The notes beneath the pieces were generated by a model that searched no databases, was not told the origin of the DNA, and saw only the letters and a list, made by a program, of their open reading frames with translations. The translations under genes were made by a program, and so were the position numbers. From assembly GCA_946613265.1 (NCBI GenBank), contig CAMOFK010000002.1, positions 33,817 to 97,816 on the forward strand: DNA of 64,000 nt. Reading direction: 5' to 3'. Of the stretch, positions 6,531 through 52,000 are shown piece after piece (the first letter of the stretch is position 1; the number at the start of each line of letters is the position of its first letter). This DNA comes from an uncultured Verrucomicrobiota bacterium. GTDB taxonomy: Bacteria; Verrucomicrobiota; Kiritimatiellia; RFP12; UBA1067.

Positions 6531-8261
6531 ATGATGCAATGGATAAAGCAGCCGGGAAACACTCTCATAGCGCAATCGTCCATCGGCCATCTTGCAGGTA
6601 TTTATCCATTTCTTCTCACGGCGGACCGGGCGGCGGATGCAAAGGATGACAGCTTCAAAGAGAACGATGATGCAATGACAAGTGAAAATCCAGACAGAAA
6701 GAATTTCGGTCAATATTTCACGCCAAGAGATATTGCATCGTTTATGCTGGATCTTTCGCAAACATCGGCAAATGCAAAAGTTCTCGAACCATCATCTGGC
6801 GAAGGCGTGTTCTTGAATCTGCTGGAAGAACGCGGCTATGGCGACTTGCTTGCTTTCGAGATCGACCCTGGATTGGCGCGTGAGCGCAGATGTGTCAGAT
6901 GCGAAAGTTTTGTCAGCGCGGAATTGCCGCATGATTTCGATCTAGTCATCGGGAATCCGCCGTATATCCGTTGGAAAAATCTGACGCAAGAATTCAAGGA
7001 CGAACTGGCGGAAAATTTCCTGTGGCAAAAGCATTTCAACTCGTTGTGCGACTACGCCTGCATTTTCATGCTGAAAGGAGTGGAAGTCCTCAAGGAAGGA
7101 GGTGAACTGATATTCATCTGCCCCGAATATTGGATGAATACTACTCACGCGATTTCGCTCCGCAATTATTTGCTTGACCATGGATATTTTTCCGACATAT
7201 ACATTTTCAATGAAGCGCCTATTTTCAAAGGCGCAACGGTTTCGTCCGTCGTTTTCCGGTTCGTCAAAACCACGGCGAAGGAAAAACCGGCAATGCGCAT
7301 TGCAAAATTTGTCAAAAAAAGGAACATAGACAGCGACATATTGAAGAAACTTCAAAAACGAGAGCCTGTAAGCGATGTCGAGTATCTGGAACTCCCGCAA
7401 TTTGGAATTGGAGAACGCTGGGTGTTTGCCGCCAAGGAAGAAGCCGGCCGATTGAAGAGTTTGATGAAATCATGCCGGGCCGCAGATCAAAGCGCCTGTC
7501 TCGGCAACGATTATGCCATTGCCGCAACCGTCGGAGATGTATGCGATATTGGCAACGGAATGGTGAGCGGCTTGGACAAAGTCTTCCAGGTGCCCGGCGA
7601 CTTGCCTTTGACGAAAGACGAGCAGCACGATTCGATATGGGTTTACAAAGCAAAAGACCTGTCGCCTTATTTCGCGCTGCAGCCAACGCGATATGTCTAT
7701 GTCCCAGAAAACATAACCGAAGAATCAGAGTTTGAAAGATTGTATCCGCACTTCCACTCACTGATGAAACCATGTGCCGGACAACTTGACAGACGATACC
7801 AGTATAACAGCCGCATCCCGTATTGGCAATGGTGCTTCAAGCGAAACGAGAAGCTATTCTCTAGAAAAGAACCACGCATATTTGTGCCATGCAAAGAACG
7901 TATTTCGGCAAAATCATTTGTCCGTTTTGCTTTGGCAGACTCCGGCTTTTATCCCACGCAAGACGTCTCCGCCCTGTTCCGCAAGGAAAAGACCAAAGAA
8001 TCGATAGAATATATTCTTGCATATCTAAACCATCCACTTGTATTCAAATGGATAAAATACTATGGAATATCCAAGGGTAATATCGTGGAGTTTTCCGAAA
8101 AGCCGCTTTCCAGCATACCTTTCCGGAAAATAAATTGGGAGAATGAACGCGAAAGAGCGGCCCATGAAAGAATTACCGCATTAGTCAAAGAGTTGCTGGA
8201 CGAAAGAAAACCATCGCTGATTCGCGACATAAACGAACAATTCGAGGAGTTGCTGAAATGA
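6531..8261 (+). CDS. Gamma-class N6-adenine DNA methyltransferase (TaqI / Eco57I-like) with a C-terminal target-recognition region. A later start at 6675 (MTSENP...) is possible.
   Basis: Motif I VLEPSSGEGVFL and motif IV NPPYIRW in gamma order, with FTPRDIASFM upstream. The gene is about 43-45% GC against about 65% for its neighbours. Confidence 0.85.
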   Translation: MMQWIKQPGNTLIAQSSIGHLAGIYPFLLTADRAADAKDDSFKENDDAMTSENPDRKNFGQYFTPRDIASFMLDLSQTSANAKVLEPSSGEGVFLNLLEERGYGDLLAFEIDPGLARERRCVRCESFVSAELPHDFDLVIGNPPYIRWKNLTQEFKDELAENFLWQKHFNSLCDYACIFMLKGVEVLKEGGELIFICPEYWMNTTHAISLRNYLLDHGYFSDIYIFNEAPIFKGATVSSVVFRFVKTTAKEKPAMRIAKFVKKRNIDSDILKKLQKREPVSDVEYLELPQFGIGERWVFAAKEEAGRLKSLMKSCRAADQSACLGNDYAIAATVGDVCDIGNGMVSGLDKVFQVPGDLPLTKDEQHDSIWVYKAKDLSPYFALQPTRYVYVPENITEESEFERLYPHFHSLMKPCAGQLDRRYQYNSRIPYWQWCFKRNEKLFSRKEPRIFVPCKERISAKSFVRFALADSGFYPTQDVSALFRKEKTKESIEYILAYLNHPLVFKWIKYYGISKGNIVEFSEKPLSSIPFRKINWENERERAAHERITALVKELLDERKPSLIRDINEQFEELLK

Positions 8262-8551
8262 ACTCTTTTGTGGATTTCAATGCCATCGGCAATATTGTGC
8301 GCGGGCTTGCAGTCCCCAAACCCTTGTCTGGCACTTTGTCTGGACATGCAGCAGGCGAGCCGTTCGACAAAGCTGTTTACAACGAGCTCAAAAAGGTTTA
8401 TGGAGACAGGATTTTCAGGCAATACGAGTACCTCAACTTCAATTCTATGTCGCGGACTGCGACCAGACATTTTCAGAAGGCCGAGAAAGATGGGCGAGGG
8501 ATTATCTTCGGCATTTCGTCGCAGAGGCCGAAAGAAGAGTGTCATATATGA
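8258..8551 (+). CDS. Small 97-aa ORF translationally coupled to the methyltransferase (ATGA overlap). Possibly the remnant of a cognate restriction endonuclease.
   Basis: The start overlaps the methyltransferase stop. Same low GC. Weak PD...ELK-like stretch (EPFDKAVYNELKK). Too short for a functional type II REase. Ends in an AT-rich junction before ileS. Confidence 0.35.
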   Translation: MNSFVDFNAIGNIVRGLAVPKPLSGTLSGHAAGEPFDKAVYNELKKVYGDRIFRQYEYLNFNSMSRTATRHFQKAEKDGRGIIFGISSQRPKEECHI

Positions 8552-17418: not shown

Positions 17419-18510
17419 ATGGCGGAATCTGCTGGAGAGAAGACGGAGATGCCGACGCCCAAGAAGCTGCGCGACGCGCGGCAGAAGGGGCAGGTCTGCT
17501 CTTCCAAAGACATCGTCTCCACAGCCATACTCATCGTTCTCTTCTGCGTGCTCGGCTGGATGGGGGTCGCGCTGATGGACGATTCCGGCAATCTCCTGCG
17601 GCTTGTGGGCGCGTCCGTCGAAAAGAACGACATGTTCGGGCTGGGCGAGACGATGAAGCTTACGGCGTTCACGATATGCAAGCATTCCTTCATATTCGTG
17701 ATCGTCGCGGCGGTCATCGGCGTCGTGGGGAACGTGGCGCAGATAGGCTTCCTTTTCACTTTCGAGCCGATCGTCCCGAAGCTGGAAAAGCTCAACCCGG
17801 TAGAAGGCGCGAAGAAAATCTTCTCTATGAAGAATCTTTTCGAGTTCCTGAAAAACGTCGTCAAGGTCACTTTCCTCGGATACCTCGTATATAAGATCAT
17901 ATTGGCCAGCGTCCCGGAGCTGCTTACGATGTGCTACGGCACGCTGGACGACATCTTCCCCTGCCTGCGGCTGATGCTGAAACGCATGGCCATCTATACG
18001 GCCTTCGGGTATATCGTGATAGCGATTGTCGATCGCATCTTCCAGGGCAAGAATTTCACCAAGCAGATGATGATGACGAAGGACGAAGTCAAGCGCGAAT
18101 ACAAGGAGATGGAAGGCTCCGCGGAAGTCAAGCAGGCGCAGCGCCAGTTCCGCGACGAACTCCTCAACGGCCCAGACCCCGCCGCCGCTGCGAAGAAATC
18201 TGATGTCGTCGTCACCAACCCGACGCATCTGGCGGTCGGCATACGCTACGATGTCGAGGAAGCGCCGCTGCCGCGCATATGCGCGGCGGGCGCCGACGAT
18301 GTCGCGAAAATCATCCGCGAGACGGCTCTCGCGGAAGGCATACCGGTAATGGAGGACGTGCCGCTTGCGCGCGCCCTCTACGCCGGCGGCAAGGTGGAGG
18401 AATTCGTCCCCGAGGCGCTTCTCGAGCCTGTCGCCGAAGTCCTCAAGTGGGCGAAAGCCATCAAGGAAGCAAAGAAGGAAGAAGATGAATTGGACAGCGT
18501 GACGATCTGA
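17419..18510 (+). CDS. flhB: FlhB/YscU/EscU-family type III secretion export-apparatus switch protein
   Basis: N-terminal EKTEMPTPKKLRDARQKGQV. Four TM helices. KLNPVEGAKKIF motif. NPTH autocleavage site (VVVTNPTHLAVGIRY) and C-terminal PLARALY. Confidence 0.9.
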   Translation: MAESAGEKTEMPTPKKLRDARQKGQVCSSKDIVSTAILIVLFCVLGWMGVALMDDSGNLLRLVGASVEKNDMFGLGETMKLTAFTICKHSFIFVIVAAVIGVVGNVAQIGFLFTFEPIVPKLEKLNPVEGAKKIFSMKNLFEFLKNVVKVTFLGYLVYKIILASVPELLTMCYGTLDDIFPCLRLMLKRMAIYTAFGYIVIAIVDRIFQGKNFTKQMMMTKDEVKREYKEMEGSAEVKQAQRQFRDELLNGPDPAAAAKKSDVVVTNPTHLAVGIRYDVEEAPLPRICAAGADDVAKIIRETALAEGIPVMEDVPLARALYAGGKVEEFVPEALLEPVAEVLKWAKAIKEAKKEEDELDSVTI

Positions 18511-21731: not shown

Positions 21732-21931
21732 CATATTTTTCTGCTTCCGCAAAGGGGGTAAAATCGTTTTTTGGCTTTTTTTTCGTCTTTGCCGCCTCCA
21801 AAACCTTCCAACCCCGCCTCAGGGCCAGGATTAAATTGCTTTCTCCCCCCGAAGAAATGCCGCGCAAGCTCGCGCGCCTCCCCTGGTGTGCCGTGCCAAG
21901 CACCGCTATCACCATTGCCTATACCCTTTGC

Positions 21932-22098
21932 GGACCAAGTCGCCTTCATTGGCGACTAGAGTCGCCTTCATGGGCGACTAGAGTCGCTTTCATTGGCGAC
22001 TAGAGTCGCTTTCATTGGCGACTGGAGTCGCTTTCATTGGCGACAGGAGTCGCTTTCACTGGCGACATGAGTCGCTTTTATTGGCGACTGGAGTCGCC
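21932..22098. repeat. Tandem array of about 7.5 copies of a 22-bp unit GGCGACTAGAGTCGCYTTCATT. Each unit carries a 7-bp inverted repeat (GGCGACT-ag-AGTCGCC).
   Basis: Units read off directly at 21951, 21973, 21995, 22017, 22039, 22061 and 22083, with a degenerate copy at 21932. Intergenic, upstream of hup and downstream of uvrD. Confidence 0.9.
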
Positions 22099-22286
22099 AA
22101 GGGAGGGGACGGGAGAAGCGGGCGGCAGCGTTCCGGAGGGGGCGCGTTCCCTTGCCTAAGGAGAGCTGCTCTGCGCTTGCAGCCTCGCGCCCGCGTCCTT
22201 ATATTTAAGTATTCGCTGTGTCCTTTCCGTGTGTGTGGGGTGGGCGGCGGCGCCATAGAGCCAAGGACTCCGCCGCCGGCGGGGGG

Positions 22287-29124: not shown

Positions 29125-29916
29125 TCACTTCGCGAGATCTTCAATGACGATCTGCGCGATCCTGCGGCCGCTCTTCAGCATTCCGCCGAAGATCGGCCCC
29201 ATGCGGAAGCCGCCCTGCGTATTGTTCGCGGCCATGCCGCTCGCGTACAGGCCGGGGTAAAGGCGCTTGGTGTTCGCGACGGTGGTGCGCTCGCCGTCCG
29301 CCATCCACATCGGGCGCTCGCCGAGAATTCCGCCGGTCGGCGAATCGATTTTGACGCCCGCCTTGTGCACCGCCTTGTTGACGATTTCGCTGGGGTGCCC
29401 GGTGCCGTCGATGAGCGCGCGCGAAGTGACGACGATGGGATCGACGTGCATTTCAAGCCTTGCCACAGGGTTCCAGTTTATCACTACTCCGGAGACTACG
29501 CCATCGTGCATCACGATATCTTCCACCTTGACGGTGTTGAAGATGACGGCGCCCGCCTTGCGCGCGCCAAAGATCAGCCCGGAAGCCATCTCGACCGAAT
29601 CCACGGTGTGGTACTGCCCGTCGTACTGGCGCGTGGAAATCCCGAATTCATGGAGAATTTCCGCCGCATCGTTCTGCACGGTCACTTCGTTGAAGAGCAT
29701 TCCGCCGCCCCACGTGCCGCCGCCGGGCGCAAGCTTCGATTCATACACGGCGACCTTCAACCCGGCCTTGGCAAGATCGTGCGCGGCGACAAGCCCGCTC
29801 GGCCCCGCTCCGACGATCGCCACATCGACCGCGAGATTGTTCTCCAGCTTCTCGAAAAAGCGGCGTATGATCGCGCCGCTGATAGTCTCTTCCATTACGG
29901 AAGTCTTGGTGTCCAT
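29125..29916 (-). CDS. thi4: Thi4-family thiazole synthase (archaeal/eukaryotic type)
   Basis: [29 protein letters not shown]…[14 protein letters not shown]-binding pattern of the Thi4/THI1 family. 263 aa. Confidence 0.85.
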
Positions 29917-29929
29917 TTTTTGCTTCTTT

Positions 29930-30016
29930 CTTCTCCCTACGCCGGCATTACCCGGTTCAGGTTATTCGGGTATTTTCTCAGCAGTGCCGGCACCTCGCCG
30001 GCACAGCACCCCGTCG
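29930..30016 (-). promoter_or_regulatory. TPP riboswitch (THI element) in the thi4-thiE leader
   Basis: Minus-strand RNA reads …ACGGGGUGCUGUGCCGGCGAGGUGCCGGCACUGCUGAGAAAAUACCCGAAUAACCUGAACCGGGUAAUGCCGGCGUAGGGAGAAG… This has the GGGGUGC, CUGAGA, ACCUGA…GG…UAAUGCC…GCGUAGGGA core. The SD (GGGAG) lies in the 3' P1 strand just before the thi4 ATG. Confidence 0.8.
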
Positions 30017-30022
30017 CGATAC

Positions 30023-30031
30023 ATTATACCA
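30023..30031 (-). promoter_or_regulatory. Extended -10 TGGTATAAT driving the riboswitch-thi4-thiE transcript
   Basis: Reverse complement of attatacca, immediately upstream of the riboswitch 5' end. Confidence 0.45.
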
Positions 30032-30154: not shown

Positions 30155-30232
<78 letters not shown>

Positions 30233-30566: not shown

Positions 30567-32966
30567 GTGCACATGCAAACGGAATATCGCCACATGAAAA
30601 GGGGAATAAAGCGTTGCGTCTTGCTCGCCGCCGCTATATTGGCGGCGTGCGGAGGCGCGAGCCAAGACAATGGCGCCGGTGCGGGACGCGACGCGCGGAA
30701 AGCGCCGAAGGCCGCATGGCGCCTGCGCTACGCCGAACCAGCGCAATGGAGCCAGAAGGGGTGGTGCGAAGCGTCGCTGCCGCTTGGCAACGGCCTCTTC
30801 GGCGTCTCCGAGTTTGGTGGCACGGACGTCGAGCGGTTGCAATTGACGGAGCCGGCGTTTCAGACGCGCCAGCTTTTGTACGGACGCGAGGACTGGCCTG
30901 AAGGGAATCTCACGGACGCGGCGGATGTCACGATAGATTTCGGGCACAAGGACGCCGGTGGCTACATTCGCGAACTCGACCTCGAAACGGGCATCGCCTC
31001 TGTCAGATACTCGACGGGCGGGATCGACCATGAGCGCGAATACTTCATATCCTATCCCGACAAGGCCGGCGTGATGCGTTTTTCGGCTTCGCAGGAAGGA
31101 GCGCTCTCGTTCACGCTCGGTGTCGCGGTGCCGTTCACGGACGAAAAATGGCCGTTAAACCGTACCGGGAAAGTCGAGTCGGCCGGCGACGAGATTCGTT
31201 TGACGGCGGAGAGCGGCGCATACCACGTCAAACTCGCAGGCTGTTTCAAGGTTTTGACGGACGGCAAAATCTCCAAAGCCGGGGAGAACTCTCTGCGGGT
31301 TGAAGGAGCAAGCGAAGCGACGGTCGTGTTTTCTCTCGCCACCAACTACCGCCTTTGCCCGGAGATGTTCACGGCGATGCACGGCGAGCGCGACAGAACC
31401 GCCGATTTCGGCCTCGATCCTGCGCCGGAAGCGGCGCGGCGCGTGGCGGCGGCGGCGCGGCGCGGCTACGCCGCACTGAAAGCGCGCCACCTCGACGACA
31501 TTCGCCGGCTGGTCGGCAGGAGCGGAATAGACATCGCCTTCGAGGCCGGGGATATGGCGCTGACGACGCCGCAACTGCGCTGCCGCGGAGCCGCCAGCAA
31601 TTATCTCGCCATGCTTCAATGGCGGCTGGGGAAGTATCTGCTCGCTTCGTCGTCGCGTCCCGGCGGGCTGCCGGGATCGTTGCAGGGGATATGGGCCGGG
31701 CCTGTTTCGAATACGGCGTGGGGTTCGGGCTATTGGCACAATATAAATGTGCAAATGCTCTACTGGCCGGCGTTCATATGCAATATGTCCGAATGTTTCG
31801 AGCCTTACGCCGCCTATTGCGAAGCGTTCCGCCCGGCGACGCGCGGGGCGGCGAGGGCGTATCTCGAAAGAGAAAATCCGGCCGCGCTGGACGAGCCGCT
31901 GGCGGAGGATTTCTGGAGCGTGGGCACGGCGGCGTGGCCGTACGAGCTGCAGATGACGCCGCACCGCGAAATTCCGAACGGGCACTCCGGGCCTGGCACC
32001 GGCGGCCTTACGACCGCGATGTTTACAGACTGGTACGACTTCACGCAAGATCGCGCAATCCTCGAAAAGCGCGTCTGGCCCGCTCTGCACGGCATGGCGG
32101 ATTTCCTCACGCGCTGCGTCGCGCATACGAACGGGCTGTGGCTGGCGACTTTCTCGGCTTCTCCCGAACAGCTCCACAAGAAAAAGCTGCGCAAGACGCT
32201 CGGGACGTATTGCCACACGCTAGGGTGCGCTTTCGATCAGCAGATGATCGAAGCGAACAGCGCCGCGCTCGTGCGTTTCGCCGGGATTCTGGGGCGGTCG
32301 AACGATCCGGTCGTCAAGCGCTGCCGCGCGCAGCTCGGGAAGTACGACAGCGTCATGATCGGCGGCTCCGGGCAGATAAAGGAGTTCCGCGAGGAGGACA
32401 AGTACGGCGAAATAGGCGATCCGGAGCATCGCCACGTTTCCCATCTCTGCGGCCTATACCCGGCGGCGATAATAACCCGCGCCACTCCGGAATGGCTCAT
32501 GGCGGCATCCGCCACTCTCGATATGCGCGGCAAAAAGACCAATGGCTGGGCCACGGCGCACCGCGCCTGCTGTCGCGCGCGCATCGGCGAAGGCGACAAG
32601 GCTCTTGCTTCCTTCGACACCTTCTTCAAGGACTGTCTGACAGACACCCTGTGGGCGCGGCTGGCGGGAACGCAGGAAATCGATGCGAATCTCGGCTATA
32701 CGGCCGCGGTGTCCGAAATGCTCGTCCAGAGCCATGAAACCGACGAAAAGGAGAATTTCATCGTCGATCTACTGCCGGCGCTTCCGTCGAAGTGGGCGTC
32801 CGGCGGCTCTTTCAAGGGACTTTGCGTTCGCGGCGGCTGGACGGTCGATTGCTCATGGAAGGATGGCCGGCCGGTCGAGGTGGCGCTCCATCCAGGCCCG
32901 CATGCCGCCCCCAAACCCCTTGTCCGCTTCGCCGGCGCTCCTCTGCGGGCGCTTGAATCCCGCTAA
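30567..32966 (+). CDS. Glycoside hydrolase, GH95-like (alpha-L-fucosidase family), probable lipoprotein
   Basis: N-terminus [16 protein letters not shown] is a lipobox. Internal [14 protein letters not shown] resembles the GH95 catalytic-region signature. 799 aa. Coordinates from the ORF track. Confidence 0.65.
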
Positions 32967-33075
32967 TTGCTTTTTGTTCCGGTGCCAGATACGATTTTGC
33001 GCGCTTACCGTTGGCTCCGTAAACCTCGCCCGTTCCATCCATCGACTTTTCCCGTACCGCCCATCAGGTGATTCT

Positions 33076-33215
33076 TGTCGCCTCGTCTCGCGACTAGGGT
33101 CGCCTCGTCTCGCGACTGGAGTCGCCTTTGCAAGCGACTAGGGTCGCCTCGTCTCGCGACTAGGGTCGCCTTTGCTAGCGACTAGGGTCGCCTTTGCTGG
33201 CGACTAGAGTCGCTT
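33076..33215. repeat. Second array (about 6.5 copies) of the 22-bp GCGACTAGGGTCGCC-core tandem repeat, same family and orientation as the 21.9-kb array.
   Basis: Units at 33090, 33112, 33134, 33156, 33178 and 33200. Spacers are TCGTCTC or TTTGCTR. Intergenic, after the GH95 gene. Confidence 0.85.
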
Positions 33216-33810
33216 GGGGAGGCGACAAGCGCCGCTCCGGCTCCCGAACCCGCAGACCGCGGCTACGCATCCCGCGCACCGTGCAAAGACCTGCCGCGGG
33301 CTGACACGCCCGCTCCCAAGGGGAAGTGGCGCAGAAAAGGCGACAAAGTTGCTTTATTCTGGCAGATATAGTGCATAGAAGGGGAGGAGTTTTTGCTAGT
33401 TTCGTACCATTGGGAAGCTGGGATAAGAGAAGGTGAAAAAATCTTCGGGGCGTTCCGTTGCCCATTGACGGGGGCAAAAAGAATATGATAAAATATGCCG
33501 CAACTTGGGTATAGTAGGTATGGTTGGTTATATTGAATATGTCGCAACAGACGAAATAACGTCTCTTACGAGGCGTTTCCAACCTTGCCCCCCACTCCCC
33601 CCTCGAACAATACGCACATATGCGCGGTGTTTTGCGTCGCGAGCCATTTGCCGGCGGTAGCCACGACTTCAAAATGACACGTGACGCGTTCATACCGAGC
33701 AGAGTTTCGCAACGCCCGTCCAGGCGCGTATTCCTTTCTTCGCCCTGGCATCGTCGTCGCGAGTGCGGACGGCGCAGGAACTATTTCCAATTACAAGAGG
33801 CATGAACATT

Positions 33811-34674
33811 ATGAATAGAAGAGTACAGAGGATAGGCGCGGCTATCGTGCTTGCAGCCGCTTCAATCGCGCTGAGCGCGTCCGCCGTCAACTTCCCGGTC
33901 GGCACCCACCTCGTCAAGGGGACGCTGAAGAACTGGAAGAACAAGGTGCTCACCTCTTCCGCCGCCGTGACCGTGCAGGCGGTTTCCACGAACGGCACGA
34001 TCATCGCATCCGCCACGGTGTCCGACCCCACGGAGGACGGATCCAACTTCCTGCTGTCCATTCCGCTTTCCACGAAAGCGACAGACTTCACGGCGGCCGT
34101 AGGCGACCAACTCAACTGCGTCATCGTGCAGGAGGCCGGCCTTTCCGTCGCCGCGAGTCCGATCCGCGTGGGCGATGCGAACACCGTCTCCACGGTATCC
34201 CTCGAGTTCGTCAATATGAAGACATACACCGCGGCGGACGGCACCACCGCGAGCATCCCGGAGGAATACGTCGAAACGATCGCCCCCTGGATGGAGGCAT
34301 ACGAGATCGAGGGCGACTACGATCCATTCGCCGACTATGACAACGACGGCGTTTCGAACTACGTCGAATACCGCGCCGGCACGAGTCCCTTCGACGATAC
34401 CGACAAGCTCGCGATCACCGATTACTTCGCGCCGCGGAACGCCTTGCACACGCTCAAGTTCGAGTATGTCGGCGGCCATGTTTATGGCGTCGCCACCACG
34501 CTTTCGCTCGTGAATCCGGAATGGGCCGTGCAGAAGGTCAAGAAGACGGAGGACGACGCCGCACGCGAGCAGGTCATGCCGTCCGCCGACGAAGAGGATG
34601 TGGGGATTGCGACTATATACGTCGTGCCCGTCGAGGGCGCGAAGAGCCAGTTCTTCAAATTGGAGGCGAAGTAA
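33811..34674 (+). CDS. Secreted protein with a C-terminal DxDxDG Ca-binding-like motif and an FFKLEAK tail. Start set at MNRRVQ.
   Basis: Signal peptide RIGAAIVLAAASIALSASA. C-terminus DYDNDGVSNYVEYRAGTSPFDDTDKL…SQFFKLEAK parallels the C-terminus of the first CDS (1..3087). Confidence 0.6.
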   Translation: MNRRVQRIGAAIVLAAASIALSASAVNFPVGTHLVKGTLKNWKNKVLTSSAAVTVQAVSTNGTIIASATVSDPTEDGSNFLLSIPLSTKATDFTAAVGDQLNCVIVQEAGLSVAASPIRVGDANTVSTVSLEFVNMKTYTAADGTTASIPEEYVETIAPWMEAYEIEGDYDPFADYDNDGVSNYVEYRAGTSPFDDTDKLAITDYFAPRNALHTLKFEYVGGHVYGVATTLSLVNPEWAVQKVKKTEDDAAREQVMPSADEEDVGIATIYVVPVEGAKSQFFKLEAK

Positions 34675-41858: not shown

Positions 41859-44429
41859 ATGAAAAAGACACTTTTGACAATGCTGGCTATGGCCGCCGCG
41901 GTCTGTTCATTCCAGGCCGGCGCGGAAACGGTGCAAATATCGGATGCCGAAGATTGGGCGGCGTTCGCGGCCCGCGTGAACAACGGCGAGACGGCGCTCG
42001 ACGCGGAACTGACTGCCGACGTGACGCTCGCGCAAGACTCCCCGCGCGTCGGCGACTCCGTGGAACATCCATACGCCGGTTCGTTCAACGGCAACAGCCA
42101 CAAGCTGACTTTGAACTGGAATTCTTCCGGCGTCGAACGTCTCGCTCCGTTCGGCTACGTTTCCGGCGCGAAGATTTCCGATTTGCACACGGCCGGCGCT
42201 ATTGTCACCGATAGCCAGTTCGCATCCGGGCTGATTGGCGAAGCGCGCCCAAAAGGCGCTGTCATATCGCGCTGCCGTTCGTCCGTTGCAATCACGAGCA
42301 CCTTAAGCGGCGATGCGACCATGGGAGGCTTCGTCGGCAGGACTTACTGGGAATCGCAGCTTGTCGAGTTGAATAACTGCCTTTTCGACGGCTCGCTGAT
42401 TGCTGCGGACGGAACCAATATCGGCGGTTTTGTCGGCTACAATTTCGATGCGACACAACTCACAATCATAGATTCTTTATTCGCTCCGCAAAGTTATAAC
42501 TTGCAGACAGAAGACGGCTCTGCTACATTTTCTAGACATGTGTCGTGGACTTCCCTCTCATTAAGGAACAGTTTCTACACGACTGCGGTGGGCGAAACCC
42601 AAGGCACGGACGCCTCCGCGATGACGCCGGAGCAGCTTGCCGAGGCTCTCGGCGGCGCTTGGAGCGTTTCGGATGGCAAGCCAATTCCTTCGGCTGCCGC
42701 CTTTGAGGAGTTCAAGCATCGTACCGGCGTCATCGAATTGTTGAAGAACGGCGAAGGCGGCAACACGGACGGATGGTTGGTCGATAGAGGCTCATGGGGG
42801 AAGCAGACGGGCAATGGCAGCTGGTTCTGGCCGAATACGGAAGCCCTGTCTAGATTGTCGCAGTGGGTGACGCTTGAGGATTTCGGAATCACAACGAACG
42901 ATGTCATGGCGGGCGTTTCCGTGACTGCTTCCGTCACGGCACGATGCCGGATTGGCAGTCTGGCCGCCTATGTCAAGCTGATTCAGTTTGGCAATAACGG
43001 AAGCATCGCCGAGACTACGTTGATGGACAGGACAGGCAAAGAATTCGCCGAGACCACCTATACGACAAATATCACGCTCGACGCCAATACGACAGTACTG
43101 CAATATATGCTGGTGGGGCAGCAGCCGGAGAGCGGCGAATACTTGTCCGGTCCAGCCTTCAAGCAGTGCAGCCTGACCACGTCGCGCTTCGCAATATCCT
43201 TTGTGTCGGAAGGCGCCGAGGTCGATAAAGTCTACTTCTTCAACATCTCTGGCGTGACGGCTCCTCGGCCGGGCTACCTCTGGAACCACGTTTTCATCGG
43301 CTACTATACGCAGGAAACGGGGGGAGAGCAGATTTTCGACGGCAACTGCCGCTACACGAATCCCGCGGCTTGGACGCCGAATGGGAGTGCCACACTCTAC
43401 GCGCATTGGCGCCCCCGGGTCGTCAGTTTCAAGTTTGTTTCGTCCGGTTCGACCGTCGGAGACTTGAACTACAACTTTGAGGGCGAGGCGCCGACAGCGC
43501 CGATCCCAGTCCGCAAGGGCGACTACAAATTCCTCGGCTACTACACGGAGAGCGGCGTGCAGGTTTACGACGAGAACGGCGCTTTCGTCGCAAGTTCCGC
43601 TTCCGCTTTGACGCCGGATACGACGCTCTATGCGAGTTGGAAGCTCCCCGAGGGCAGCGCCGCTAAGCTCGTCTATCGCGGGCAGTTGAGCCGTCTGACC
43701 GGCGAACCCGCGACAAACGATACGGCGTACGAAAAGACGATGCACTTCCGCGTTTACGACTCGGCGGAAGCGGCGACGCCGCTTTGGAAGATCGACGACC
43801 AGCATGTGACCGTGAACGCCGACGGCAGCTTCGTGCACATGTTCGGCGACGAGACGCTCGCCGCGCTCATCGCGACAGGAAACGTCTCGCATGTCGGCGT
43901 GGCGATCGGCACGTACGCAAACACGGCTGCGGAATTGAAGCCGCGCCGCGAGCTGCGCTCTGTCGCGGCAGTGAACCGTGCGATTACCGCGGAAGGAGCG
44001 GCGCTCGATATCCGCGTCGGCAATCTCGCCACCGAGAATGCGTTGCTGGCGGCCGACGCGACCGTTTCGCATCTCGAAGTCGCAGGCACGGTGACGGCGC
44101 CGGGCGCCGGCAAGATCGAGGTCTCCCCGCTCACGGTCGGCGCGGGCGAGCGCACGCAGCTCTTGCGCGGCAAGGGCGTCAAGGCGTTCGCGCGCACGGC
44201 GCCTTCCGTGTTGGTTCCCAATTCCGGCGCGGTCTTGAGAGGCGCGGTCCTCGCGACGGCGCCGGCGGACGGCGTGGCGCTCGTTTCGAGCGCGGCGTTC
44301 GGCGAGCGCGCTTTGCGCTGCCCGGCGGTCGTCCAATATTGCCGCGCAGGCGAAAGCGTGCGCGCGCCGACATCCGACGATGGCGGCCTCAAGGTGACGT
44401 TCTTCCCGTTCGTCCGGAACGACCGTTGA
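41859..44429 (+). CDS. Secreted GLUG-motif protein with C-terminal List_Bact repeats
   Basis: Signal peptide MKKTLLTMLAMAAAVCSFQAGA. Repeated GLUG-type motifs (ASGLIGEARP, MGGFVGRTY, IGGFVGYNF). List_Bact units (…GYLWNHVFIGYY…LYAHW; …GDYKFLGYYTE…LYASW). Tail VTFFPFVRNDR. Confidence 0.65.
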   Translation: MKKTLLTMLAMAAAVCSFQAGAETVQISDAEDWAAFAARVNNGETALDAELTADVTLAQDSPRVGDSVEHPYAGSFNGNSHKLTLNWNSSGVERLAPFGYVSGAKISDLHTAGAIVTDSQFASGLIGEARPKGAVISRCRSSVAITSTLSGDATMGGFVGRTYWESQLVELNNCLFDGSLIAADGTNIGGFVGYNFDATQLTIIDSLFAPQSYNLQTEDGSATFSRHVSWTSLSLRNSFYTTAVGETQGTDASAMTPEQLAEALGGAWSVSDGKPIPSAAAFEEFKHRTGVIELLKNGEGGNTDGWLVDRGSWGKQTGNGSWFWPNTEALSRLSQWVTLEDFGITTNDVMAGVSVTASVTARCRIGSLAAYVKLIQFGNNGSIAETTLMDRTGKEFAETTYTTNITLDANTTVLQYMLVGQQPESGEYLSGPAFKQCSLTTSRFAISFVSEGAEVDKVYFFNISGVTAPRPGYLWNHVFIGYYTQETGGEQIFDGNCRYTNPAAWTPNGSATLYAHWRPRVVSFKFVSSGSTVGDLNYNFEGEAPTAPIPVRKGDYKFLGYYTESGVQVYDENGAFVASSASALTPDTTLYASWKLPEGSAAKLVYRGQLSRLTGEPATNDTAYEKTMHFRVYDSAEAATPLWKIDDQHVTVNADGSFVHMFGDETLAALIATGNVSHVGVAIGTYANTAAELKPRRELRSVAAVNRAITAEGAALDIRVGNLATENALLAADATVSHLEVAGTVTAPGAGKIEVSPLTVGAGERTQLLRGKGVKAFARTAPSVLVPNSGAVLRGAVLATAPADGVALVSSAAFGERALRCPAVVQYCRAGESVRAPTSDDGGLKVTFFPFVRNDR

Positions 44430-44460
44430 AAGGTTGAAAAGTTTAAAGGTTGAAGGGTTG
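44425..44460 (+). repeat. Junction motif GTTGAAAGGTTGAAAAGTTTAAAGGTTGAAGGGTTG
   Basis: Direct read. Lies immediately after the GLUG-protein stop. Confidence 0.8.
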
Positions 44461-44665
44461 ATGGCGAAGAACGGCAACAGCAGCCTCGACCGGGCCAAGA
44501 AGCAGAAGGGCGCGTACATGACAATCCTGAGAGTACGAATTATTTCTGCAATACAGACCAGTCGTTCACGCTAGACAGAGATGGAACAGTCCGCGTCTGC
44601 AAGTTTGGCTACGCATGTGAATGCTGCACAAACCGGACATGCCATGTAGAACGGGAGGTGCAACG

Positions 44666-45443: not shown

Positions 45444-46028
45444 ATGAAGATTGACCCACTATCGCTGACTGCGCGAGAACTGTGCGAAGGCTACGCCGAC
45501 CATGCGGAGGACGGCGTGGTTGCGTATGGCGGCAGGCTCGACATCCGCCCGAAGTATCAACGCGAGTTCATCTACTCCGAAAAGCAGCAGCAGGCAGTCG
45601 TAAACACGGCGATGCACGGCTGGTCTCTGAATACGATGTACTGGGCCGTGCGCGGCGACGGCACGTTCGAGGTCATCGACGGACAGCAGCGCACCTTGTC
45701 CCTCTGCCGCTTCTGCGAGGGCGACTTCTCCTTCCCGTGGCGCGGCTCACGGCAGACGGCGACGTGCCGCGCACGAGCGGAATCTACGAGTATCTTCTTT
45801 CCGGCGGCGAGCGGGAGAGCGCGCTTTCCATCCGCAAGTTCACAGATTCGCAGAAACGCTCGGCCTGCGAGCGGCAGGGCTTGGGCCTGTCCCGTCTGCG
45901 GCAAGCGTTTCGAATTCGAGGAAATGCACGGCGACCGCAAGACGCCGTGGCCGAAAGGCGGGCACACCACGCCCGACAATCTACAAACGCTTTGCCGCAT
46001 ATGCAACCTAAGGAAAGGCAATGTGTAG
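45444..46028 (+). pseudogene. DUF262 (ParB-like, DGQQR) plus HNH mini-nuclease, apparently disrupted by two compensating frameshifts
   Basis: Frame 1 gives the N-terminal …RPKYQREFIYS…EVIDGQQRTLSL (DUF262) and the C-terminal CPVCGKRFEFEEMHGDRKTPWPKGGHTTPDNLQTLCRICNLRKGN (HNH). The roughly 150-nt middle reads as Arg/Ala/Ser junk in that frame but as plausible protein in frame +1 (ORF 45482..46060). Confidence 0.45.
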
Positions 46029-46038
46029 TCGCTCATGA

Positions 46039-46066
46039 GGTTGAAAAGCTGAAAGGTTGAAAATTC
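46039..46066 (+). repeat. Junction motif GGTTGAAAAGCTGAAAGGTTGAAAATTC, abutting the giant gene's ATG
   Basis: Direct read. Confidence 0.8.
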
Positions 46067-49000
46067 ATGAATTTCGATAACTATATTAAATCACGCATGG
46101 AGGGCAAAGCAATGAGCCTTGCAGAAAAACTCGCTGGAAAGATGAAAAGTCGCTTTTCAACTTTTCACCTTTTCAACTTTACAACCGCAGCGTTTGCGTT
46201 CGCGCTCTGCGCGACGGCAAACGCCGCTCCGCCAGAGGATACAGAACTCACGCTTGGCGAGGTTGAGCTGCCTGTATATATCTATTCGGCGGGCGGCAAC
46301 TCCGGCTTCGCGCAGCCTTCCGTGGCGTATCCGATTTCCACCGTCAAGGCGCCCACGCTGCCAGAAGAACAGGTGACGAGCGTCTCGGACAAGGACAAGA
46401 CGAAGACTTGGCAGCTCTTCGCCTGGACGGTCGGGCGCACGCTCTCGGAGCAGCCGCCGGACGCCAGGCTCGGCGACTTCTGCACCGACACCATCTACAA
46501 CCCGGAGGATATCGACTGGCTCGCGACCATCGCGACAAACAAGGCGCTCGTCGCCAATGGCCAGATCGTTTTCAACACCGGCGCGACGAATGCGTACGAG
46601 CGGCTGATCTTCACCGCGAGCGGCGCGACGGAGATTACATGGGTGAACACCGCCGGCGAGACAGAGTCGCGCACGTACAACATCGGCAGCTCGTCGTCGG
46701 CGCGTCCCTACAGGCTCTTCGCCACGCGCGCCGATGAGGGGAATTCCGCCGCGTTCATCGACCTCTCCGGAAAGTACGTCAGATTTTTTGGCGACAAGAA
46801 ACTGCTCGAGAGCCGCTATGCCGAGACTACGCCGGGCGCCTCTAACGTGGTTTACGGTATAGACTACGATCCTTCAAAAAGCAAGCTTCTCACGGTGCGC
46901 TACACGGTCGATGAAGCAACCGGTGCCATCGATTGCCCGCAGGGGCAGTTCGTGCTGGCCTACTACGACACCGAAACGAAGGATCGCATGGTCGCGCATA
47001 TCGTCGTCGAGATATGCCCTCCGAATATCACCACGCTCAATGTCGAAGTCGGCGATTGCCTCAAGCCGGCGGGCGGCGGCTTCGGCTCCGGCCAGCTCTA
47101 CGCCGTCGCTTCCGCAGGCCTCTCGCGCGAGGATAACGACTTGTATTCGCCGTATCTCGAGAAGTATTCCGCCCCCGAGGGAGAGGAGCTTACCGATCCA
47201 GACCACGGCAAGATTTTCGCCGTCGCGCCCACGGACGTGACGACAAGTTCCTCCGGCATCGCTATGCCGTGGAAGGCGGACATCTTCTGGCAGACGGAAG
47301 ACCCGATGAAGACGAAGTGGAACTTCGAGCACGACTGGTACCTCATCAGCTGGCCGGAGAAGCCCGTTCGCGTCGTCGTCGCGCCGAACGGGGCGCCGGC
47401 GGGATGCTCCGTCGTCGTGCCGACAAATTATGTCGCTTCCACATCCGGCTTCAAGCTTCCGAGCACCGTTTCCGCCAATTACGATTCTTTCAAGGGCGAG
47501 ATGACGTTCAGCGGCGCGAGCGGAGACAAGATCCTTGTCAAGCTCGTCAATCAGAACAACAAGGGCTGCCCGTCGTTCATCCCCGTCGAGCTGACCGGCT
47601 ACGCGAATCCGCTTGTGGCGTCGCCTTGGCTCTACGAATGGCCAGTCGGCGTCGAGATCACGCCGCGCATCGGCATCGAGGCCGGCCCGCTGGCGCGCGC
47701 GGTTTCCGAGCGCATCGACGACAATCTCGCAGGCTACATCTACGAGCCAGAATCGCGCGGACGCAACTGGAACCCGCGGCTCTACCATCGTCCAGGCGGC
47801 TCGAGCGTGGTTCCGCTCGACGTCCCCTCGCTCGACGAAATAGAATCCGAAGCGGCCCGCGAGCCCGCCGACGCCTATGAAGATCTCGATTCCTCCATCT
47901 ACGGCGTGAACGAAAGCGGCTCGAAGATCCAGGTGTGGTGGAGAGCGAATTTCCAGACGCCGCAGATGAGCGTGCCTGTCGTTTATCCGGCGCTCGTGCA
48001 GAACTACAACGTGACATGGAACGCGACGATGGCGAACGGCCTCCTGCCGCAGATCGCCTTCTCCTCGCAGTGCGGTTCGGACGACCCCACGCTGACTGCA
48101 TGCAGCGGGCGCTCCCTCCTTCTCGTCGAGACGAATTCGATGGCGAGCGTCGAACTTGGCAACACGGCGCTTTCCGTGACGGAATCCGCCAACCTCGGTT
48201 TCTCCTGCTACGTCTCTCCCGACGAGACGGAGAACGGCGAGTTGGCCGCGATGCCGGGACGCCTCGCGAAATTCCGCTTCGGCGGGCGCAAGACCGGCGA
48301 CGTCGCCGTGATCGACGCGATACTCGTCAAGGGCGAGACGAATGACTACAGCGTCGTCGTTTCTACGACGGCTGGCGGCGCCACGACGCAGGAGACCTAT
48401 CCCGTAACGCCCGGCGAATGGGCGGACATCCCTGCGCCAATTCCCGAACCGGCGCGCGGCTGCACGGTTTCCGCGACATACGGCGCGGAGAACCAGACGG
48501 CGGGCGATGCCGCGACATTCGTGGCCCTCGACAACCTCGAAATCTGGTACGGCCCGGCGACCAACGCAGTCGATTTCCTCTACGCATTCGCGTTTGGCGA
48601 CAACGATCTGGCGACGCTCGGCACGAACGGCACCGTCCGCACATCCACGGATCCGCTAGGCAACGTGCTGACTTGCCGCAACTGCTCGATGGCCGGTGCG
48701 GGCGCGCCGCGCGCCTTCGAGAAGAAGTTCGCGGCGAATAATGGCGTGGCACCGGAAATCTACTACGAGAACAACCCGAACAACATCGGCTACAACCCGA
48801 ACGAAGAACATGCGTTCATAGATTTCAACAACTCCAACTACACCGTCTGGGCGTTGAGAAACGATCTGAACACCGAGAATTCTTCGCAGCCGCTCGTCCT
48901 GGTGATGTATGCCGAGAACGGTAAGGGCAAGATGCAGGCCTTCACGCTCGCGAAGACCTCCATCCACCACCCGGAGTTTTCCAGCTCCGCCATCGTCGGC

Positions 49001-52000
49001 AACCAGCTGTTGCCGCCGGCGCCGATCTCCCGCCTCTCCGGCAGCAAGACTTCCATCGACACCGCGGCGTCGGCGTTCGCGTTCGACGACAACGCCGTCG
49101 CCTACAAAGACCGCAAGAACGCCCTCTGGGCGCGTCGCGACGGCATCGCCTACGCCAAGTACGGCTACCCGATGCAGACGGGCTTCTACTTCCCGTCGCT
49201 CGTCGAGCAGCCCGCGGTCGGCACGCCGATCGCCTGGCTTGCATGCGAAGGTTTGCAGGCGCCGACGATGGACGACATCACCAACATCGCCGCAGCGGTG
49301 AACTGGAAGTGGACCGCTCAATGGCCTTTGCAGGTTCCGGAAATGAAGATCGGCCAGGTGCTGACGAAGGCGGCGCTCGGGCTTCCCGAAGTCTGGAACG
49401 CCTCGTCCATGGCAGTCTGCTACCCGAATCCTTCCGCGGCCGACGTGGAAGCCGGTAGTTCCCTCGGCCTGCCCGTAGTCGAACTCATCGACCCTACCGT
49501 CGTGCAGAAGTCCGAAAAGACGCTTGACGTGAACTCGAACTTCCCCGACGAGTGGGGCTTCGTGGTCGGGCCTTCCGGCACGACGTTCCTCCGCAAGGGC
49601 AAATACTACTTCACCGGCCTGCCGCCGTCCATTTCGGACCGTTTCTACGTCACGGTAGAGAACGGGCAGGCCTCGATGAACCTCATCGGGCAGTACGTCG
49701 AGAAGGAAGCCGGCGGCTCGTACCTCGAGCTTAACGTGCTCACCGACGCGGAGCGCGCGGCCATCAAGGCGCTGTGCACGCTCGATCCGACGCAGAAGGC
49801 CGCGGAAGTCGCGGCCTGGAACGCGGCGGCGGATTCGCTCGCCGTTGCGGAAGTGCAGCCGTCTCCTCGCACGAACGTCCCGGACGGCGTCCCGTCCGAA
49901 GGGCGCGTCGAGATGATGCTCGCCTTCCCGAGCAAGGATCTGTACGATGCCTGGGTGAGCAAGATGAGGTGGGACGACTCTCTCATCGCCAGCCGCTTTA
50001 CCGTCGAGGAGATCACTCTCAGCAGCATCGGCACGCCTCTCAAGGTCGTCGTCGGCAAGGCCGTCGAAGCAGACGGCGTCGCATTCGCCAAGTGGCATCT
50101 GAGCAAGATACGTACCGAGAAGGTGAAGGAAGGACGCCTCGAAGCCGCCAAGTCCCGCTACGAAGAACTCGGCCTCAATACATATCTCGGCAAGGAGTGG
50201 GACGAGGAGACGGGAGAAAAGACGACTTGGCCTGTCACATTCGTCGAAGGCTACTTCACGTGGGATGCGAAGGAATATCCCGCCGCGAACACGTATCTGC
50301 CGCGCGACCACTACGCGCTCGTCGCCAACGGCCTCGGTGTCGGATATGTCACGCTCATCGAGAACGACAACCCCGATCCGACGCAGGTGTCCGACGGCCT
50401 GCCGGTGCGCATGCACGTCATCAAGGTCGTGCCGGAATTGTACACGGACGGCATCGCGGTCTTGACCGACTCTCTGAACAAGCTTTCCGAAAAGCTCACG
50501 CTCCTCTATCGCACGCCGCTCGGTTCCTCCGCGAAAGACTTCGAATTCCAGTGGGCGTACACGACGCCGATGGCAAACGGCGACGTCCCGGAGAAGGGCA
50601 CGTCCTATTGGAAGGACAAGGCGCAGGAGACGGGACTCGTCTCGGTGCAGCTCGGCGAGAATGGCGCGAACCTCCAGGACTATGTCAATACCTATTATAC
50701 TCTGCGCTACCGTCCCCGCAAGGGTTCGCCCGCGTGGGAGGTCTTGAAGCTGGCTAACGGCTGGACGGACGACGAGCAGTTCTGGAGCCCGTGGGTGGAC
50801 GAGCAGCTCGCCGAAGGCTGGCTGCAGCGCGTTCTCAACTCTCTCACGCCGTTTGCGCAGCGCGTGGAGGATTTCTACTCCAACCAGAGCGACATGTGGC
50901 TCACGATGCTCGAGCAGATCGGCCGTCCCTACCAGGGCGACGTGGCGCTCAACAACGACAATCTCAAGCAGATCGGCCTGCTTGAACTCTACCAGACGAT
51001 ATTCAACCGCGCCGAGGCGTTGCTCGTCGCCGCCGGCGGCAACAACATCGACATGTCCAAGCAGCTCATGCTTGCGCAGACGCGCATGGGCGAATTCTAT
51101 TCTCTCCTTGGCGCCGAGGCGTATTCCGACGCGAAGAACCCGCTGATTTCTCCGGCCGCCGACGGCCAGAAGTTCGCGTCCGGAACGTTCTCGTTCGCGA
51201 ATCAGGTTCCGTCGCTTCTCGACGAGGAACTCGCGCTCCTGCGCGGCCGCACGAAGGCGACGCAGTTCCCGCGCATGACCGAGGCGCCGCTCTACAACCG
51301 CCTCGCCTGGAACCTGACAAAGGGAATAACCGAGGGCGAGCCCGCGTACGTCGCCAACTACGGCATCCGTGCGCGCGACGGCATCCTCGACGTCAACTGC
51401 GCGGCTGCGCAGTATCCGCAGGGCCACGGCGACGCATGGGGCCACTACCTCTCGGCCATCACCGGCTACTACCGCCTCCTGCGCAACCCGTGGTTCGATT
51501 GGGCGACGGCGATGGGCGAGATGCTCATGGACCAGAAACTCATGAACGTCGATTACCAGGATGAGCAGAAGCTCGCCGATGCGGCCGTCAAGCTCGTCCA
51601 GACAGGTACCGACGCCATGGATCTCACGCTTCGCAAGGCTTACAAGGAGAACGCCGGCAACACCGACGCGGCCTATTTCGACTCCGACACCGAGCAGGCG
51701 TTTGGCTACGGCGAATGGGCGACGCGCACGGGCATGGCGGCCGCTTACAACTGGATGACGGTGAATGCGCTCCTGCCGACGAACGACGCGCCCTACCAGG
51801 CGTTCACCGACAAGGGCGTCAAGAAGATCGACCGCACCACGGCGACGCAGCTTCCCGCCCTTGCATCCTCCGTCCGCGTGATCGAGAGGAAGCTGAACGG
51901 CTACGAGGCGGGTGCGAACCCGCTGGGCCTCGACGAGAACGCGATCCCGTTCGATATCGATCCCGACCGCCTGGCGCAGAAGGAGTCGCACTTCGAGCAG

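Follow-up and report, generated by a model that had tools for sequence, protein, structure and literature searches.

Several described systems resemble the repeat reported here. The F-plasmid site sopC is a tandem series of 12 units of 43 bp, and SopB binds the 7-bp inverted repeat that each unit contains. The parC sites of R1 and pSK41 are plasmid centromere-like repeat arrays, and the iterons of R6K, pSC101 and RK2 have a period of 22 bp. The REP/BIME elements of enterobacteria and pseudomonads are extragenic, species-specific, multi-locus and clustered palindromes, often located just past stop codons; they are roughly 35 bp long, imperfect and alternating. Variable-number tandem repeats (VNTRs) and minisatellites, such as the mycobacterial MIRUs, are intergenic tandem repeats of tens of base pairs at several loci, with a unit number or composition that differs between strains. 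MIRUs measure 40-100 bp, are without a perfect dyad core and often couple the translation of flanking genes. The CsrB/RsmZ sponge RNAs are made of many short hairpins with GGA-containing loops.

We analysed a stretch of 64,000 bp (the window) that carries two arrays of a 22-bp tandem repeat. Like sopC, parC and the iterons, these arrays consist of head-to-tail units with one short dyad each, at an integral-turn period (22 bp, about two turns) and with six to eight units; the arms do not vary, in contrast to the centre and linker. Unlike those sites, they are chromosomal and occur at several loci per genome. They are direct 17-22-bp repeats at about 22-bp spacing, as in iterons, and tandem units with a short inverted repeat each, as in partition centromeres. 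Neither par nor rep genes were found beside them, and DnaA boxes and an AT-rich unwinding element were likewise missing. An iteron-type origin or a plasmid or phage replicon was rejected, given the neighbouring genes (GH95, thi4, uvrD and HU) and zero viral, plasmid and phage matches. A strict partition centromere was also rejected, as neither the window genes scanned nor those called on contigs L075 and L083 include parA/parB or parM/parR Pfam domains.

With REP/BIME elements, the arrays share the extragenic, species-specific and palindromic nature and the clustering, often just past stop codons, and they occur at more than one locus (two in 71 kb, plus two more in the same metagenome). They differ in that each unit is a 14-15-bp perfect dyad, all units are direct at a strict 22-bp period and no solitary copies occur in the window. 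No RAYT gene was present in the 71 kb inspected. With VNTRs and minisatellites, they share the head-to-tail unit of 10-100 bp (22 bp here), the intergenic position at several loci and the strain polymorphism of unit number or composition. In contrast to MIRUs, they keep a 10-base dyad frozen while the rest of the unit varies. The many short hairpins, the GGA-containing loops and the intergenic packing are reminiscent of CsrB/RsmZ. Unlike these RNAs, the arrays are exact tandem repeats, GGA is not maintained in the two arrays of the window, and no promoter/terminator pair, Rfam match or csrA (~250 kb searched) was seen. A known RNA family was ruled out, since nothing in Rfam matched at gathering thresholds or at E<=5. 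CRISPR was ruled out on the basis of the 15-bp core, the 7-nt linkers that are themselves repeated and the lack of cas domains. The arrays are a previously undescribed, lineage-restricted, hypervariable and palindrome-cored minisatellite family within the broad bacterial extragenic palindromic/VNTR class. The parts of the two arrays are listed in Table 1.

Table 1. Parts of the two repeat arrays, in window coordinates.
Feature	Position	Strand	Evidence
Array 1, decayed first unit, GCGGACCAAGTCGCC + TTCATTG	21930..21951	+	sequence reading, strain comparison
Array 1, seven full 22-bp units	21952..22105	+	Tandem Repeats Finder, pattern search, gene identities
Array 1, decayed terminal unit, GGGACGGGAGAAGC	22106..22119	+	sequence reading, end-unit comparison
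Array 2, decayed first unit, GTGATTCTTGTCGCC + linker TCGTCTC	33068..33089	+	sequence reading
Array 2, six full 22-bp units	33090..33221	+	Tandem Repeats Finder, pattern search, unit table
Array 2, decayed terminal unit, GCGACAAGCGCCGC	33222..33235	+	sequence reading, end-unit comparison

Tandem Repeats Finder called array 2 at 33077-33213 (period 22, 6.2 copies, 82% matches, score 162). The array was also scored at superperiods of 44 and 66 bp because two linker types alternate. By direct reading of the sequence, each full unit follows the formula GCGAC-N4-GTCGCY plus a 7-nt linker, and the units start at 33090, 33112, 33134, 33156, 33178 and 33200. The loops (N4) are TAGG in four units and TGGA and TAGA in one each. 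The linkers are TCGTCTC (twice), TTTGCAA, TTTGCTA and TTTGCTG, followed by the purine-rich terminal linker TGGGGAG. The decayed first unit matches the core at 10 of 15 positions and keeps the 22-bp register.

The sister array, array 1, was called at 21938-22097 (period 22, 7.3 copies, 92% matches) in the same orientation. Its loops are TAGA (three units), TGGA (two units), AGGA and ATGA; its linkers are of the TTCATTG type, and the terminal linker is AAGGGAG. It is located 190 bp past the stop codon of uvrD, to which it is antisense, and 270 bp upstream of the start codon of HU; uvrD and HU are minus-strand genes. No sigma-70-like site was detected around it in a promoter scan. The original prediction of a 22-bp palindrome-core tandem repeat in two arrays of the same orientation is thus real. 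The six to seven copies that it gave for array 2, with TCGTCTC or TTTGCTR spacers, correspond to six full units plus decayed ends, with the linkers TCGTCTC and TTTGCWR. It had further claimed a like terminal sequence in both arrays. The strings do exist (GAGTCGCTTGGGGAGG at 33207-33222 in array 2 and GAGTCGCCAAGGGAGG at 22091-22106 in array 1), but they are a decayed end unit with the purine-rich last linker and not a separate flanking element: nothing beyond them aligns.

Array 2 starts 110 bp past the stop codon of a GH95 fucosidase gene (30594-32966, +). It is sense to this gene, and no terminator was predicted between the two. The surrounding gap (32967-33810) measures 844 bp and is non-coding, as had been proposed (0.85 kb), because its minus-strand ORF lacks a coding GC signature. 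This ORF (33175-33693), which is called by public annotations and overlaps the end of array 2, was rejected as spurious: its codon-position GC is 0.51/0.57/0.55 vs 0.63/0.51/0.76 for real window genes. The distance from array 2 to position 33811, the start of a block of four genes, is 576 bp. The products of all four genes have signal-peptide-like N-termini, in agreement with the predicted block of secreted-protein genes, and none has a Pfam domain. Of the tandem promoter-like elements claimed for the gap, just one sigma-70-like site (33465-33494, TTGACG-18-TAAAAT) passed the scan.

This site is strong and has a TG element. It is followed, ~70 nt on, by the hairpin AACGTCTC-TTAC-GAGGCGTT. Promoter and hairpin (33465-33590) are identical in the sister strain L093, where the first difference is a single base just past the stem (about 33583). 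The region may encode a small RNA, or else a leader of roughly 310 nt for the operon at 33811 may begin here. For the 287-aa secreted protein encoded at 33811-34674, 760 homologues were counted in metagenomes of gut and rumen; the best 120, which were listed, are 73-99% identical, and some homologues have a weak bacterial TSP3 repeat. A 5' leader that is conserved in relatives (TTTGACAYCRCCAGARAAGGCGGCATGTCCCGAGAT...GGAGC; L086 9753-10001 and L090 9485-10001) is missing from the window.

The window derives from the chromosome of an uncultured Kiritimatiellae that lives in the sheep rumen. Among sheep-rumen assemblies, AUXO01 contains the sequence (contig L074/L080, 100% identity over 1632 bp), and it recurs in ENA SHIW14 scaffold_212 and NCBI MAG GCA_002363575.1; homologues of the window's proteins carry the NCBI name Kiritimatiellae. 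The genes around the arrays are chromosomal (smc, ileS, uvrD, HU, tRNA-Pro and thi genes). A TPP riboswitch ahead of thi4-thiE (29916-30023, -) and a tRNA-Pro(TGG) gene between the two arrays (30155-30231, +) are ordinary.

Some other regions of the window were also recorded. A low-GC island (6531-8551, GC 0.51 vs about 0.61) lies directly after smc. It encodes an Eco57I/N6-adenine methyltransferase-like protein of 576 aa together with a fragment of 97 aa that carries a HincII endonuclease domain, and is probably an acquired restriction-modification module whose nuclease has decayed. An FlhB/YscU-type export gate gene (Bac_export_2) adjoins an ECF-like sigma factor gene, and three chaperone genes of the CesT family and very large ORFs free of Pfam domains (2717 aa and >890 aa) are also located in the window. 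Taken together, this set (17419-18510; 46067-54220; 56506-56979; 60575-61409) resembles a region of type III secretion effectors and chaperones, here in a Kiritimatiellae bacterium. An 8-bp repeat (GTTGAAAG or its complement) forms short runs at 44425-44461, 46038-46062 and 46153-46185, which flank a GmrSD_N+HNH endonuclease gene (45444-46028).

The pattern GCGACTNNNGTCGC, with at most one mismatch, gave 28 strand-matches in the window vs 5.2 +/- 2.5 in shuffles (a maximum of 11). Just two one-mismatch strays lay outside the two arrays, and no solitary exact core was found outside them in the window. A stricter two-unit pattern, applied to 241 million metagenome records, led to four loci (L071, L072, L073 and L074). 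L074 is array 1 itself, and L071, L073 and L074 all originate from one sheep-rumen metagenome. The L073 array has eight units with the linkers TTTGCTC, TTGCCTT and TTGGTTC and adjoins cinA, the homologues of which are from Kiritimatiellae. The L071 array has four to five units with the linker CGCTCTC. A sister-strain copy of L073, also with eight units, was found in L095 between the 3' ends of convergent cinA and rsmE-like genes, ~170 bp past the rsmE-like gene and in sense orientation to it. This third array probably belongs to the genome of the window because L095 shares its sample of origin, and nearly its coverage (4.16 vs 4.20), with contig L085, which is identical to the window. The family comprises at least three or four arrays: two in 71 kb of contiguous sequence and two more in the same rumen metagenome. 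All are extragenic and palindromic, and in general they lie 110-240 bp past stop codons. The two window arrays have opposite orientations to local transcription.

All arrays are laid out alike: homogeneous inner units are enclosed by a decayed unit at either end, and the last linker is purine-rich. The flanks of different arrays did not align beyond the decayed end units, and no common flanking element, promoter or terminator was found in them. The linkers are specific to the locus (TTCATTG, TCGTCTC/TTTGCTR, CGCTCTC and TTGCCTC) and follow a loose Y-T-n-n-n-Y-T-n pattern. Array 2 mixes one linker type near that of L071 with another near that of L073. The core is identical throughout, with the consensus GCGACTGGAGTCGCY and the dyad GCGAC-N4-GTCGC. 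In 45 pooled units, the arms GCGAC/GTCGC were invariant, no compensatory change occurred, and the period was 22 in every array. The third loop position was G in 44 of the 45 units. The commonest loop was TGGA (23 units), and AGGA, CGGA and GGGA made up seven more, so that 30 of 45 loops were NGGA. Within the window, such loops occurred in one of the six units of array 2 and three of the seven of array 1. The pooled loops were 77% purine and the linkers 71% pyrimidine.

In the strains compared, the nucleotide identity of the flanking genes is 99.1-100%. Array 1 has seven units in the window strain vs eight in L076/L078, plus 13 substitutions. It is 92.6% identical between strains vs 97.3-98.3% in the rest of its intergenic region, and its flanks are 0.6-2.7% divergent. 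Array 2 is identical in L083, L084 and L085. In the sister strain L093, there are still six units, but these are reshuffled and differ at 14 of 132 positions vs about 3% in the flanks; the terminal unit there is GCGACAAGCGTCGC, with the dyad still complete. L073 and L095 differ at 15 of 176 array positions vs 2.8% in the flank. Overall, array divergence amounted to 7-11% of positions, plus whole 22-bp units. The arrays change several-fold faster than their surroundings through unit turnover. Gain, loss and reshuffling of whole units are expected from slipped-strand mispairing or unequal recombination between units. Moreover, public contigs from several assemblies end inside array 1 or array 2 (the end of L082 and the starts of L079 and L081), as expected because such repeats confuse assemblers.

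None of the 42 differences between strains affected the ten stem positions: all of them were located in the 12 loop and linker positions. If the sites are independent, the chance of this outcome is (12/22)^42 ~ 1e-11. A core that stays fixed despite rapid array turnover argues against purely neutral slippage. The dyad is under sequence-specific constraint, and its arms are protected by selection, recognition-dependent copying or conversion.

Related genera were reached via homologues of UvrD (70-71% identical) and of the 287-aa protein (75-79% identical). Neither the core nor a comparable tandem repeat was found in about 65 kb of non-redundant sequence from them. The orthologous intergenic regions are not present in these genera, where the uvrD and 287-aa homologues sit in other neighbourhoods, and no lineage of intermediate divergence was found among the protein-database homologues. 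Array conservation is limited to strains of one species-level lineage. Viral contigs gave zero matches with the three-unit and two-unit patterns, plasmid and phage collections gave no blastn match to array 2, and a literature search on the core sequences and on Kiritimatiellae repeats found nothing relevant. Hence, the further copies that had been anticipated do exist (L073/L095 and L071 of the same rumen data), but orthologous arrays in related genomes do not extend beyond the strains of this lineage. The idea of a repeat family kept up by function or gene conversion holds as far as the family itself is concerned, with its conserved core, divergent linkers and spared stems; the link to a promoter or to the secreted-protein block is not supported (see below).

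A loose two-unit pattern was also applied to genome contigs, and the matches listed were mostly unrelated (BlaI operators, REP-like pairs and chance hits in coding sequences). Counting L072, the acidobacterial operator pair from the metagenome search above, at least 14 contigs of Vicinamibacterales/Acidobacteriota had a Penicillinase_R (BlaI/CopY) gene of 127-131 aa behind a dyad pair. The pair has the form TTGACA-TGCGAC-N4-GTCGCA-TAnnA-TGCGAC-N4-GTCGCA, with dyads 22 bp apart that overlap the -35 and -10 elements, and the central four bases differ between paralogues. The pairs are presumably autoregulatory operators. One of these contigs (L072) has the core GCGACTGGAGTCGC, which is identical to the array consensus. 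The classical BlaI/MecI/CopY box is TACANNTGTA (PMC7253601). Arrays and operators are alike in the dyad (T)GCGAC-N4-GTCGC(A) and in the 22-bp centre-to-centre spacing, a match that was partly forced by the search pattern used in the genome scan. They are unlike in that the operators are paired inside the promoter of the repressor itself, whereas the six to eight array dyads are far from promoters. No blaI or blaR1 gene was found near the arrays. A BlaI/CopY operator in the strict sense was rejected, as neither a Penicillinase_R gene nor a promoter is located beside the arrays despite the identical dyad geometry. The dyad pairs before Penicillinase_R genes show that a real protein family reads this geometry; they are not evidence of such a protein in this organism.

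Tandem GCGAC-NGGA-GTCGC arrays with a 22-bp period, often at contig ends, were also among the matches listed (at least L045/L064, L024/L028 and L050). The MAGs are labelled Terrimicrobiaceae, Promineifilum, Anaerolineaceae and Kineosporiaceae, with unverified binning, and belong to Verrucomicrobiota, Chloroflexota and Actinomycetota. Among the matches listed, NGGA loops look over-represented in independent tandem arrays (3 of about 10 vs about 3% expected, a small sample). The L045/L064 arrays were ruled out as 5' leaders, since ORF analysis revealed a gene on the other strand, with the arrays at its 3' end. One Alloprevotella MAG accounted for many copies of a MITE-like element (seven contigs among the matches listed), which has three to five units of CGCGACTGCAGTCGCG or CGCGACTACTGTCGCG at a 22-bp period and the inverted ends GTTGTCTC...GAGACAAC.

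We tentatively read the array as a set of dyad sites for a dimeric DNA-binding protein, aligned every two helical turns (probability of about 0.4). Judged from the sequence comparisons, a specific binding partner is suggested by the invariance of the dyad and by the constant period of two turns; sequence-specific recognition of double-stranded DNA by a dimeric protein would be the simplest constraint. Recognition of double-stranded DNA is preferred because the arm sequence itself is fixed, not just the pairing, and because the orientation to transcription is variable. The period of about two turns and the variable centre and linker are further support. One dimer would occupy each dyad, and a distance of 22 bp would place successive dimers roughly on one face of the helix. 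Six to eight dimers would then form a cooperative nucleoprotein stretch, with a candidate role that is structural, insulating or one of protein titration. Array 2 is sense, array 1 is antisense, and the L095 array is located between convergent genes; this varied orientation fits a strand-symmetric target. The asymmetry of the unit (77% purine loops, G at position 3, 71% pyrimidine linkers), on the other hand, hints at strand-specific reading as RNA or single-stranded DNA. As to a candidate binding protein, neither the window nor the roughly 250 kb of DNA sampled from Kiritimatiellae yielded a BlaI-like, partition or rep gene, and a tblastn search for BlaI in this small sample found none. To our knowledge, there is no precedent among BlaI-type repressors for six to eight operator-like sites far from promoters. 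The invariant arms and the period could be explained instead by recent common ancestry plus homogenisation, or by a hairpin-recognising mobilising enzyme.

An alternative is a selfish or neutral REP-like element, in which a palindrome spread to intergenic sites and was then amplified by slippage, with no host function. The uniform core would come from a mobilising or nicking enzyme (RAYT/IS200-605-type HUH transposase or IS110-type recombinase) or from ectopic gene conversion. A family that is species-restricted, extragenic, multi-locus and hypervariable, with related genera free of arrays, agrees with this. The common architecture suggests descent from one ancestral array copied to new sites, array 2 mixes linkers otherwise typical of L071 and L073, and assemblies often break within arrays (L082, L079 and L081). 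However, the 71 kb of contiguous sequence contains no transposase gene, the window contains no solitary core outside the arrays, and the GTAG-type guide motif of classical REPs is missing. Unconstrained decay should also strike stems as often as linkers, but the stems were spared. We consider this explanation, including the mobilising enzyme or conversion, somewhat unlikely. We regard as unlikely, too, that the array is a transcribed hairpin array made by read-through past stop codons and acting as RNA, be it as REP/BIME-like 3' exonuclease barriers, terminator or insulator stacks, a GGA-sense sponge for a CsrA/Rsm-type protein or a Shine-Dalgarno mimic. Each unit folds into a 5-bp GC-rich tetraloop hairpin on either strand (-6.8 to -9.1 kcal/mol). 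Read-through would be compatible with the position of array 2 shortly past GH95 on the same strand, with no predicted terminator between, and with that of the L095 array on the sense strand past the rsmE-like gene. The NGGA loop consensus, the purine-rich loops, the U-rich linkers and the Shine-Dalgarno-like last linker (AAGGGAGG, TGGGGAGG) fit an RNA as well, as do the NGGA-loop arrays among the matches listed from Verrucomicrobiota, Chloroflexota and Actinomycetota MAGs. In the window, however, GGA is found in just 1/6 loops of array 2 and 3/7 of array 1, and is therefore not maintained. The arrays are not enclosed by a promoter or an intrinsic terminator, and there is no likeness between their 5' flanks. 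Array 1 is antisense to the preceding gene, as is the L045 array. The stems show invariance of sequence and not covariation, and Rfam was without a match even at E<=5. By tblastn, csrA, fliW and hfq were absent from ~250 kb of DNA, a sample too small to decide. The minimum-energy fold of a whole array is one long nested duplex and not a row of separate hairpins; as it is obtained on both strands with equal z-scores, it is uninformative on strand or function.

A cis-regulatory module, in which copy number tunes or phase-varies the secreted-protein operon (array 2) and HU (array 1), appears highly improbable. Array 2 is located 250-390 bp upstream of the one strong sigma-70-like promoter of the gap, array 1 lies upstream of the HU start codon, and copy number or unit composition varies between strains. 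Against this, homologous operons in related Kiritimatiellae (proteins 75-79% identical) are without the array and have a different upstream region, and the L095 array lies between convergent genes, where a promoter is not expected. The promoters are far away, with none detected near array 1, and the length of array 2 is unchanged between the two strains. The same operons and the L095 array, together with the opposite orientations of the window arrays to local transcription, leave the proposed tie to a promoter and the secreted-protein block unsupported. On the preferred reading, array 2 is no promoter element for the secreted-protein operon that lies downstream.

For the preferred reading of dyads bound by a dimeric protein, a far-reaching form would make the arrays chromosomal landing pads with six to eight phased dyads each, where one sequence-specific protein, such as a BlaI/CopY-like winged-helix or a ribbon-helix-helix protein, builds centromere-like nucleoprotein filaments across numerous intergenic loci of a Kiritimatiellae chromosome. 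If the arrays act as RNA instead, they would make up a protein or anti-Shine-Dalgarno sponge of exact tandem GGA hairpins, the first in the PVC superphylum. We consider either form very doubtful. If it were true, the 22-bp GCGAC-NGGA-GTCGC arrays of Verrucomicrobiota, Chloroflexota and Actinomycetota MAGs would be part of a widespread undescribed system.

As VNTR markers, the arrays can resolve strains of an uncultured rumen lineage that is abundant, and they are a recurrent cause of contig breaks in metagenome assemblies of this lineage. Apart from the marker use and a possible role as binding sites, they are an ordinary lineage-specific repeat family. If the frozen dyad is a protein-binding site, the arrays would reveal a hitherto unrecognised system for sequence-specific DNA or RNA binding in a phylum that has seen almost no experimental genetics.
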